A stretch of 64,000 nt of DNA, from positions 1 through 64,000 of the forward strand of contig JBBIML010000014.1 in the NCBI GenBank assembly GCA_037444405.1. Direction: 5' to 3'. The translations under genes and the position numbers were made by a program. Each line of letters opens with the position of its first letter. Position 1 is the stretch's first letter. This DNA is from Armatimonadota bacterium. GTDB lineage: Bacteria; Armatimonadota; Fimbriimonadia; Fimbriimonadales; GBS-DC. Positions 29,876-31,401 of the stretch are shown piece after piece. The notes beneath the pieces were generated by a model. That model was not told where the DNA came from. It was given only the letters and a program-made list of their open reading frames with translations, and did not search any database.

Positions 29876-31401
29876 GACGCACCAAGATTGTTGCCACGCT
29901 GGGTCCAGCAATAGACAGCTTCGAGACCCTGTGCGAGTTGATAGAGGCAGGTGTAAGCGTCGCCCGAATCAACACGGCGCACGGCGACTGGGACACCCGT
30001 CGCCAGTGGATTGGCTGGCTGCGTGAAGCCGAGTCGCGCTACGGCATTCCCATCGCCATCCTGCTCGATCTGGCGGGACCGAAGGTGCGCATCGGCGCCC
30101 TGCCCGAACCTGTCCCCCTTCAGCAGGGTCAGACCGTGCGCTTTGTTAATCCATCGGCAGGCTCCCCTCTTCCACAGCGTGGGAGAGGGGCTGGGGGTGA
30201 GGGGGCAGACTCTGGTAAATCCCTCTCCCCCAGCGGGGGAGAGGGTACGGGTGAGGGGGCAAACCTCACCATTCCCCTGCCCGTGCCTGAACTCTTTCGC
30301 GCGGCGCAGCCCAACGACCGCCTGCTGATCGACGATGGCAGTATCGAGCTGCGAATCGTGCAGGTGCGCGAGGGCGAGCTGGAGGCGGTGGTGCTGGAAG
30401 GAGGCGAGCTGCGCTCGCAGCGCGGCGTCACCCTGCCCAACCGCGTGATACCGCTGCCCTCGCTTACGCCCAAAGACCGCGACGACCTCCTCAAGGGGCT
30501 GGAACTCGGCGTCGACTGGATCGCGCTCTCATTCGTGCGCAGCGCCTCCGATGTGCTGAACCTGCAGGCGCTTATCAGGGAACATAGCGCCGACACACCC
30601 GTGATTGCCAAGATTGAGCAGCGGGCGGCGCTGGACGATCTGGAGGCGATTATCGAGGTTGCCGACGGCATCATGGTGGCGCGGGGTGACCTCGGCTTGC
30701 AGGTCGATCTGGCGGAGGTGCCTGCCCTGCAGAAGCACATCATTCGGCTCTGCAATGCGCACGCCAAGCCCGTCATCACCGCCACGCAGATGCTGGAGAG
30801 CATGATTCACGAGGCTCGCCCCACCCGCGCGGAGGTCACGGATGTGGCGAACGCGGTGCTGGACGGCACTGACGCGCTGATGCTATCGGGCGAGACGGCG
30901 ATTGGCGCGTTCCCTGTGCAGGCGGTGCGCTGGATGGCACGAATCGCCGAGCATGCCGAGCGCGAGCTGTTTCGGCAGGATGCGAATCGCGGAGCAATGC
31001 AACCTGTGCCCGACCCGGAGCCGTCCCATCCACACATCACCACCGAAGCCGTTGCGCGTGCAGCCTGTCTGGTGGCGCGGATGGTCGGCGCGAAGGCGAT
31101 TCTGACCCCCACCACATCGGGCGGCACACCGCGCTGGGTGTCCCACTTCCGTCCCGAACAGCCCATCCTTGCACTCACGCCCAGCGAGCGGGTGTGGCGG
31201 CGGCTCGCCCTGCTGTGGGGCGTCGCGCCGCTGCGAATCCCGCAGGTCTCCAGCACGGACGAGATGACCGTGCAGGCGCTGATTGCCGCCCGCCAGACGC
31301 GCCTGGTGCGGGGCGGCGACCGCGTGGTGCTGACCGCCGGCGTGCCCGTGAATGTGCCCGGCAATACCAACATGATTCAGGTGCTAACTGTGGAACGGTG
31401 A
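29872..31401 (+). CDS. pyk: Pyruvate kinase with an in-frame palindromic insertion in the lid (B) domain
   Basis: [39 protein letters not shown]. Confidence 0.97.
30164..30259. repeat. BoxC-like palindromic element (inverted module A + module B) inside pyk
   Basis: 30164-30203 is the reverse complement of 11520-11559 with 1 mismatch; 30216-30259 matches 11568-11611 with 2 mismatches. Confidence 0.9.

Follow-up and report, generated by a model that had tools for sequence, protein, structure and literature searches.

Two described systems bear on the DNA reported here, the BoxC/PIT/TMECO elements of Escherichia coli and the Rickettsia palindromic elements (RPEs). In the study by Holder et al. 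(2015; PMC4666352), the TMECO pattern was given as CCCTCNCCC N3-6 GGGNGAGGG N3 GGGNGAGGG, and 23 copies, "always located intergenically", were reported in E. coli K-12. The same source described five inverted pairs in E. coli, each joining two types of element, copy numbers that were very unequal among strains, and a block to polymerase caused by PIT elements. [quoted passage not shown] The present analysis concerns a window of 64,000 nt (the whole stretch of DNA analyzed) from the genome of an Armatimonadota bacterium, and in particular a segment of its pyruvate kinase gene, pyk, which carries two modules of the BoxC/PIT/TMECO type. To our knowledge, this family has been known for some 30 years with neither an assigned function nor a known way of spreading.

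The pyk insert very probably consists of two such modules, read through as a disordered passenger in a loop of the lid domain and kept there by an in-frame filter. Each module is formed by a G+C-rich hairpin (CCCTCTCCC ... GGGAGAGGG) and a purine tail (GGGTGAGGG); in single-stranded DNA the tail could bend back and join the hairpin as third strand, giving a triplex of the purine-motif type. The family is organized here in mosaic arrays of alternating orientation and has undergone a strong and uneven expansion in this lineage, and some copies landed in genes. These would survive only if their length was a multiple of three, if the frame containing a stop (GGG TGA GGG) was avoided and if the site was a tolerant loop or linker. 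What is new here is the probable read-through of a BoxC/TMECO-type repeat inside genes, a behavior like that of the RPEs; the family itself is known. The terms 'in-frame', 'intragenic' and 'open reading frame' were absent from the text of Holder et al. (2015; PMC4666352), 'BoxC' and 'triplex' were absent from both reviews, and no report of in-frame coding copies of the BoxC/PIT/TMECO family was found in the literature searched, subscription papers lying outside it.

The pyk modules and the family to which they belong

The pyk gene (29872..31401, + strand) is an open reading frame (ORF) of 509 aa with matches to Pfam PK (6.4e-98) and PK_C (2.6e-36), and a search of the PDB with its product matched pyruvate kinases with E down to 2e-110. 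It was present as a single copy in the genome under study (G000, a 2.68-Mb assembly, 98.9% complete), two further 'matches' being translated modules. The stop codon of the enolase gene and the start codon of pyk overlap by 4 nt (ATGA, 29872-29875), so both genes are probably translationally coupled.

An earlier note, made from the letters of the window, had described two hairpin-plus-tail modules within pyk spanning about 32 codons, and the sequence of bases 30164-30259 (96 nt, 32 codons) agreed with this description. Module A (30165..30203, + strand, 39 nt) is composed of the hairpin CCCTCTTCC-ACAGCGT-GGGAGAGGG, the loop GCTGG and the tail GGGTGAGGG, and encodes 12 residues. One arm mismatch leaves it with 8/9 Watson-Crick pairs and its second loop has 5 nt; when this mismatch is disregarded, its string is the one most often encountered among the modules of the genome. 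A spacer of 17 nt follows (30204..30220, + strand), with TAAAT at its 3' end, a leader also found directly before the second module of a helicase gene in the window. Module B (30221..30257, + strand, 37 nt) contains the hairpin CCCTCTCCC-CCAGCGG-GGGAGAGGG, the loop TAC and the tail GGGTGAGGG, and encodes 11 residues. Its second loop has 3 nt, and its first loop has 7 nt when read strictly or 3 nt with the stem extended. The triads were assessed by the rule of the antiparallel purine motif, in which G*G:C, A*A:T and T*A:T are allowed. By this logic the tail GGGTGAGGG laid on GGGAGAGGG would give allowed triads at 9/9 positions, and module B, with its blocks read by hand, showed 9/9 Watson-Crick pairs and 9/9 triads.

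The genome-wide search was carried out with a pattern of three 9-nt blocks, allowing one mismatch in each, and the exact pattern was used for counts across genomes. A total of 155 modules, 34-43 nt in length, were found in G000 with the one-mismatch pattern. They formed 112 clusters, of which 72 contained one module, 37 two and 3 three, and 30/37 doubles were arranged with the tails outwards (-+). Nine out of nine hairpin pairs were present in 92 of the 155 modules, nine out of nine triads in 88, and both in 70. The blocks GGGAGAGGG and GGGTGAGGG occurred 159 and 96 times on the searched strand, and GGGACAGGG, GGGAAAGGG and GGGTTAGGG occurred 5, 6 and 2 times. The exact pattern was detected 68 times in G000 and 270 times in its congener G002, and the reversed pattern was absent from 41/41 genomes of the comparison set. 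Chance was excluded because of these 155 modules, the 68 exact copies of G000, the 270 of G002 and the zero count of the reversed pattern. Furthermore, the modules of each subfamily share their loops besides their stems, and the mismatch-free string of module A was found unchanged at many unlinked loci, therefore indicating copying and not convergence.

Membership in the BoxC/PIT/TMECO family was established by direct comparison. When the three published TMECO blocks were applied, module B fitted, whereas module A deviated in the 5 nt of its second loop and in one arm mismatch and was classed as a variant. A 47-nt query containing module B (E <= 10) matched 29,267 places in 5,337/5,426 complete genomes of E. 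coli, the median being 6 places in each, with 80-90% identity over >= 80% of the query in 4,911 genomes. The E-values of single matches were weak (0.06-0.2) because the database is large, and the whole 103-nt insert gave no match in E. coli at E <= 0.001. No annotated feature lay beneath the match among the 8 matches listed. A 35-nt subtype of G000 was identical at 33/35 positions to the E. coli copy between glnH and glnP. The exact pattern was also found elsewhere, in at least 128 stretches from Proteobacteria, Chloroflexota, Planctomycetota, Verrucomicrobiota, Cyanobacteria, Myxococcota and others. The BoxC-like shape pointed out in the earlier note was thus confirmed, both by the fit to the published pattern and by the direct likeness to the E. 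coli copies.

The modules share with BoxC/PIT/TMECO the three-block architecture, nearly the same blocks and, for the subtype just mentioned, almost the whole sequence. Inverted pairs of two module types, a copy number that is uneven among close relatives and unstable loci are also common to both. By contrast, the E. coli copies are intergenic, whereas 22-29 of the 112 clusters of G000 lie inside genes. The first loop often exceeds here the published N3-6, and the second loop of module A has 5 nt. Arrays with fixed junctions of 28-29 nt and 9-13 nt are common in this genome, and the host belongs to the Armatimonadota, not to the Proteobacteria.

Insertion at the pyk site and the predicted loop

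Orthologs of Pyk were found in 40/41 genomes and 20 of them were aligned, the catalytic core being invariant in all 20. Pyk has 469 aa in the 16 genomes of other genera, with a short loop of consensus xExQxDSA. Within the genus, the site was empty in G001 (480 aa), carried one B-type module in G003 (482 aa), A and B in G000 (509 aa), and A, B, an inverted 35-nt module and a further B in G002 (546 aa, 111 nt more), whose protein is 96-97% identical. The segment is an insertion, as had been proposed, and not a conserved loop, since it was absent from the 16/16 orthologs of other genera and from one congener. The earlier figure of about 32 extra codons held for the 96-nt segment but not for the protein as a whole, which is 40 residues longer than the 469-aa orthologs and 29 longer than the 480-aa congener with the empty site. 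The comparison of orthologs revealed neither a target duplication nor a terminal inverted repeat (TIR) beyond the modules themselves, at the pyk site or at that of the helicase. These graded states of one site (empty, one, two and four modules) constitute a natural series for the tolerance of a core enzyme to a disordered insertion.

The solved pyruvate kinases aligned to residues 2-86 and 125-506 of Pyk and skipped the insert. Its site is presumably in the B (lid) domain, going by the domain boundaries of bacterial pyruvate kinases. A model was obtained with AlphaFold2 from the 20-sequence alignment; its C-terminal domain was poor and was not used. Residues 98-130 showed a predicted local distance difference test (pLDDT) score below 50, with means of 29, 25 and 32 for blocks of 10 residues, and no secondary structure. 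The values were 84-94 per block for residues 11-90 and 82, 90, 77, 92 and 88 for the five blocks of residues 131-180. The insert was predicted between strands 88-92 and 133-135. The proposal of a loop in the lid domain was therefore supported by the gap found in the B domain of the solved kinases and by the predicted disorder. According to the model, the pyk modules most likely form a disordered surface loop rich in Gly, Glu, Pro and Ser. Most likely the insert makes no functional addition and is a passenger, either neutral or carrying a slight cost, and the loop would be translated and harmless.

Alternatively, selection could have kept this Gly/Glu/Pro-rich segment to tune the motion of the Pyk lid or its regulation, and likewise in the other host proteins. 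Although module A differs at several nucleotides between G000 and G002, the peptide is nearly the same in both, and the use of frames inside genes is strongly biased, with 19/40 modules in one frame. However, DNA coding for this same peptide was found in some 26 genes that are unrelated to one another, and its intergenic copies were more frequent; the four congeners carry from 0 to 4 modules at the pyk site; and the insert was unstructured in the model. Moreover, the nucleotide changes preserve the DNA hairpin, which points to a constraint at the level of the DNA or to conversion. The several base differences between the A modules of G000 and G002 include an exchange of A:T for C:G that keeps the hairpin, and the peptide is changed at one residue. 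Since this exchange keeps the stem, conversion from another module or a constraint on the DNA or RNA hairpin fits the data. An adaptive loop is consequently considered very unlikely, and the passenger reading is retained.

Several points weigh against the passenger reading, and others, given below with the spread of the modules, against its account of how copies multiply. The formation of the triplex is deduced from sequence, the translation of the insert is likewise a deduction, and the loop may have a mild function. The search for sequencing runs containing this DNA yielded four DNA runs from one subsurface-metagenome study and no RNA run. In addition, no Logan contig from these four runs crossed positions 30202-30233, the contigs ending within the modules because the repeat is longer than the assembler's word. 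Such breaks would also suit an assembly artefact, in which the repeat was misplaced into pyk during metagenome assembly. Nevertheless, two Logan contigs of run X1, one of 504 nt (covering 29872-30201) and one of 3,988 nt (covering 30234-30600), enter modules A and B from the pyk flanks with 0 differences. Modules also occupy this pyk site in the independent assemblies of G002 (A-spacer-B) and G003, the frame is open and the indel between assemblies is divisible by 3. The insert was therefore taken as real, and a misassembly is almost certainly not its origin.

Excision of the segment after transcription or translation, as an intron, an intein or a bypass, would mean that it never forms part of the enzyme. 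Each module would give a strong RNA hairpin, and a 121-nt stretch folded at -68.4 kcal/mol with z = -3.0 in ViennaRNA, which displays the hairpins alone. A DUF559 domain found in a relative from this order is bordered by what seem by eye to be intein ends. However, only tRNAs reached the gathering score in the Rfam scan of the window, with no RNA family matching the insert, and the segment comprises just 32 codons in which splice or intein motifs were not seen. The strict pattern of multiples of three and stop-free frames over many genes is predicted by read-through and is not needed by excision, which is thus highly improbable. When insert residues 93-134 were compared with 5.8 billion proteins, the protein itself was the sole match among 59 candidates, but so short a query of such low complexity is uninformative.

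Modules inside other genes and the length filter

The 42 ORFs that span clusters were compared with Pfam, and the positions of the domains were set against those of the modules. Clusters were called coding from Pfam and a longer-flank rule; a classifier based on 50-codon flanks was too noisy and was dropped. In a total of 22 clusters, the module was enclosed by a domain match or had domain matches of its ORF on both sides. Their hosts were a GHMP kinase, two Mur ligases, CarB, ApbE, LigA, a histidine kinase, an M16 peptidase (three clusters, four modules), FliO, LpxK, a GH20 hydrolase, the helicase, Pyk, Lnt, an E2 acyltransferase, GlnE, a DUF5693 protein, SMC (two clusters, one of them in the hinge) and MutL. 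Five more clusters, in Wzy_C, LipB/LplA, Mfd, YfhO-like and TPR proteins, had a domain on one side and coding statistics on both, and two more were found in long ORFs without a Pfam match, giving the range of 22-29 out of 112. About 26 genes thus contain modules in frame and would be read through, including pyk, carB, ligA, mutL, mfd, smc and those of Mur ligases, in agreement with the proposal of a dispersed element lying in frame in unrelated core genes. When a uniform rule was applied, 23/112 clusters were coding versus 2,461/4,000 random 40-nt windows, so genes are avoided about three-fold but are not excluded.

Each of the pyk modules has one closed frame of six, in which the tail reads GGG TGA GGG. 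The 40 in-gene modules were inserted in sense (26) or antisense (14) orientation, and 19 of them were in the single frame reading (P/S/A/T)LSPxGGEGxGEG. The comparison between G000 and G002 provided a direct view of the filter on length. All 8/8 module indels in coding sequence were multiples of three (111 nt in pyk; 111, 111, 153, 45, 33, 48 and 12 nt elsewhere), versus 2/11 in non-coding sequence (109, 113, 121, 33, 179, 110, 76, 30, 43, 46 and 155 nt; Fisher p = 0.0007). One further indel of 117 nt, whose coding status was ambiguous, was excluded from this test. These results bear the signature of modules in genes being read through under purifying selection, as the coding indels were confined to multiples of three. 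Such a restriction represents a clean signature of selection on selfish DNA. In terms of annotation, inserts of this kind inflate protein lengths and break assemblies.

In this respect the modules resemble the RPEs, which are palindromic repeats lying in frame in many unrelated housekeeping genes and adding tolerated surface segments, according to the reviews (PMC3184786, PMC10969869). The likeness is one of behavior only: RPEs are 105-150 bp long and belong to Rickettsia, whereas the modules described here have 34-43 nt and a putative triplex tail and occur in many phyla.

The second in-gene pair of the window was located in a UvrD/Rep-type helicase gene (10924..13296, + strand; Pfam UvrD-helicase 3.5e-61 over residues 6-349, and UvrD_C). 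Its module A (11520..11558, - strand) encodes 13 residues and its module B (11573..11609, + strand) is translated as SLSPSGEEGMGEG. Together they form a tail-out (-+) doublet within the span of the UvrD-helicase match. The correspondence claimed between both genes was verified: pyk module B with its TAAAT leader (30216-30259) is identical to 11568-11611 at 42/44 nt, and pyk module A (30164-30203) agrees at 39/40 nt with 11520-11559 when the latter is reverse-complemented. The pair was present in G002 and absent from G001, and a variable linker occupies this position in two other genera.

Outside genes, a module was observed within a few bases of the members of a paralogous family ending in ...DADLLxVLFNFGxGC-stop, at about ten sites of G000 (e.g., C7:220674, C16:20767 and C39:1107) and at G002 loci L201-L203 and L234. 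Many intergenic modules consequently lie exactly at gene 3' ends, as they trail the members of this family.

Copy number, arrays and candidate routes of spread

The exact copies, 68 in G000, amounted to 270 in G002 (about 95% DNA identity), 11 in G001 and 15 in G003. Elsewhere in the family and order the counts ranged from 0 to 110, with 0 in 16/41 genomes. Copy number thus differs widely among close relatives (0-270), as expected for the recently active dispersed element that had been proposed, and modules are gained and lost rapidly among the congeners. Most of the sequence specific to G002 lay at or beside modules also present in G000, and a step of 109-117 nt was recurrent. This step is one period of the array: a module (+), a tail-to-tail spacer, a module (-) and a hairpin-to-hairpin spacer. 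The tail-to-tail spacer measured 28-29 nt in 13/14 cases and contained a loosely conserved ...CGCCTGCAGGAAAC motif, and the hairpin-to-hairpin spacer measured 9-13 nt in 20/22. Hairpin-only indels of 33 nt were also observed between G000 and G002.

More than 20 places of G002 matched a part of about 150 nt (+ - +) of the pyk array, with 78-87% identity over about 150 nt. When a donor of the 111-nt pyk segment was sought in G002, the best other copy reached 86-87%, so that no recent donor was visible; there was no sign of a recent master copy or of gene conversion by another locus of the assembly. For this reason, a deletion in G000 between two B modules in direct orientation could equally account for the 111-nt difference.

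The term 'non-autonomous', applied to the element in the earlier note, is plausible, and three kinds of mobility gene or carrier were considered. One PF01797 (Y1 transposase) gene was found in G000 (locus L021, C8:177877-181209, ORF 1180-1947, - strand). This gene, of about 255 aa, is conserved and present once per genome; QVH was read by eye in the place of its HUH motif, and its C-terminus resembles sigma-70 region 4. Judging from these features, the gene looks domesticated and not mobile.

The modules could be repetitive extragenic palindromes (REPs), or REPINs, moved by this single RAYT-like Y1 transposase. Like those of REPs, bacterial interspersed mosaic elements (BIMEs) and REPINs, the modules are short G+C-rich hairpins in inverted doublets and mosaic arrays, with distinct head-to-head and tail-to-tail junctions; the alternating orientation and the two fixed types of junction, which recall BIMEs, and the one conserved PF01797 gene in the genome would be accounted for. 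REPs are extragenic by definition. Unlike in REP systems, there was no link between the modules and the resident Y1 gene: no module was found in the 3.3 kb around it (none within 1.5 kb of the gene), and the gene was present in 12/16 module-free relatives and absent from G034, which has 44 modules. The QVH reading of its motif also argues against this enzyme. A RAYT as the mover is very unlikely, and it was rejected given the lack of nearby modules and a gene presence that does not track them.

A TIR-bounded MITE with module pairs does move a minority of the copies. This MITE has about 175 nt, TIRs of 15-17 bp (GAGGCTGTTCGAAAA), target duplications of 9-10 bp and one or two modules in its core, and copies were found in G000 (C6:202292-202517 and C22:34989-35180) and G002 (L199). 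One copy was a clean 179-nt insertion specific to G002, the site being empty in G000. In its TIRs and target duplications, this carrier of modules is like other TIR-bounded MITEs. The difference lies in the scarcity of arms, since searches of G000 gave 6 and 7 arm copies, paired in 2 elements, and the arms were absent from the pyk and helicase modules.

Matches to PF04480 (DUF559) were found in 21/41 relatives. At the loci fetched, modules lay within 300 nt of the gene at 6/12, and G026 was added as a seventh by cross-reference, its sole exact module being 45 nt from a DUF559 gene. The number of modules expected per locus, calculated from the exact copy number, was 0.0003-0.04 (in six of the seven genomes, those with exact modules), so the physical association between DUF559 and modules is real in this order. 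In G023, an inverted tail-out pair of modules brackets the DUF559 gene, which replaces the 10-nt spacer of the common doublet. The module-flanked DUF559 genes of relatives are thus candidates for the missing mobility enzyme. On the other side, no DUF559 match was obtained in G000 or in G002 (99% complete, 270 copies), and the gene was present in 10/16 module-free relatives, its presence not tracking copy number; for these reasons, the action of the nuclease cannot be demonstrated here. The gene could have been lost from the G000 assembly, as DUF559 genes in relatives are often at contig ends.

In relatives, the DUF559 domain was also observed with flanking translated modules in the open frame of host genes. 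These hosts were MurD (G018, L251), YbeY, with its Pfam match split in two (G023, L253), an MmeI/Eco57I-like methyltransferase (G001, L254, and G022, L252) and an N6_N4 DNA methylase (G031, L259). The DUF559 boundaries of the latter were intein-like by eye (C... and ...HNC), with no match to an intein family at E <= 1e-4. A degenerate module, ALSPACGGEGMGMGEG, is present in frame in the murD gene of G000 (C8:35981-37474, - strand), some 30 residues away from where the G018 murD holds its modules and DUF559; the G018 contig ends at this insertion point. The Mur ligase of G000 with modules at L038 was discarded as the counterpart of the G018 protein, as the two are not orthologs.

Two routes of spread would be compatible with these data. 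Possibly, a module-flanked DUF559 nuclease element would be the autonomous partner and the tail-out doublets its derivatives without the gene. As a second route, proposed with similar reserve, growth would take place where modules already exist, ectopic recombination or template switching occurring at a replication-stalling structure. This second route fits the seeded growth of the arrays and the reported blockage of polymerase by PIT elements, but it does not explain the first arrivals. A broader and more doubtful proposal is that the modules are the ends or footprints of a pan-bacterial selfish element. Its autonomous form would be a DUF559 gene within an inverted module pair, living read-through and in frame inside essential genes like a non-splicing intein and leaving doublets and singles as disordered loops once the gene is lost. 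If this were true, a single DNA element, widespread and unrecognized in this role, would supply the core enzymes of bacteria with new loops and linkers.

Other repeats were observed in the window. A non-coding, hairpin-only relic without tail was located at 17873..17899, where G002 is 76 nt longer and includes full modules. A coding tandem repeat of 135 nt is present six times at 6433-7170 (48-nt core, 63-88% identity to the reference copy), and its reverse complement has partial matches near 53380-53790. Additionally, an inverted repeat of 160 nt (22525-22684 and 24867-25026, 78% complementary) surrounds about 2.2 kb and is adjoined by a tRNA gene at 22344-22417.

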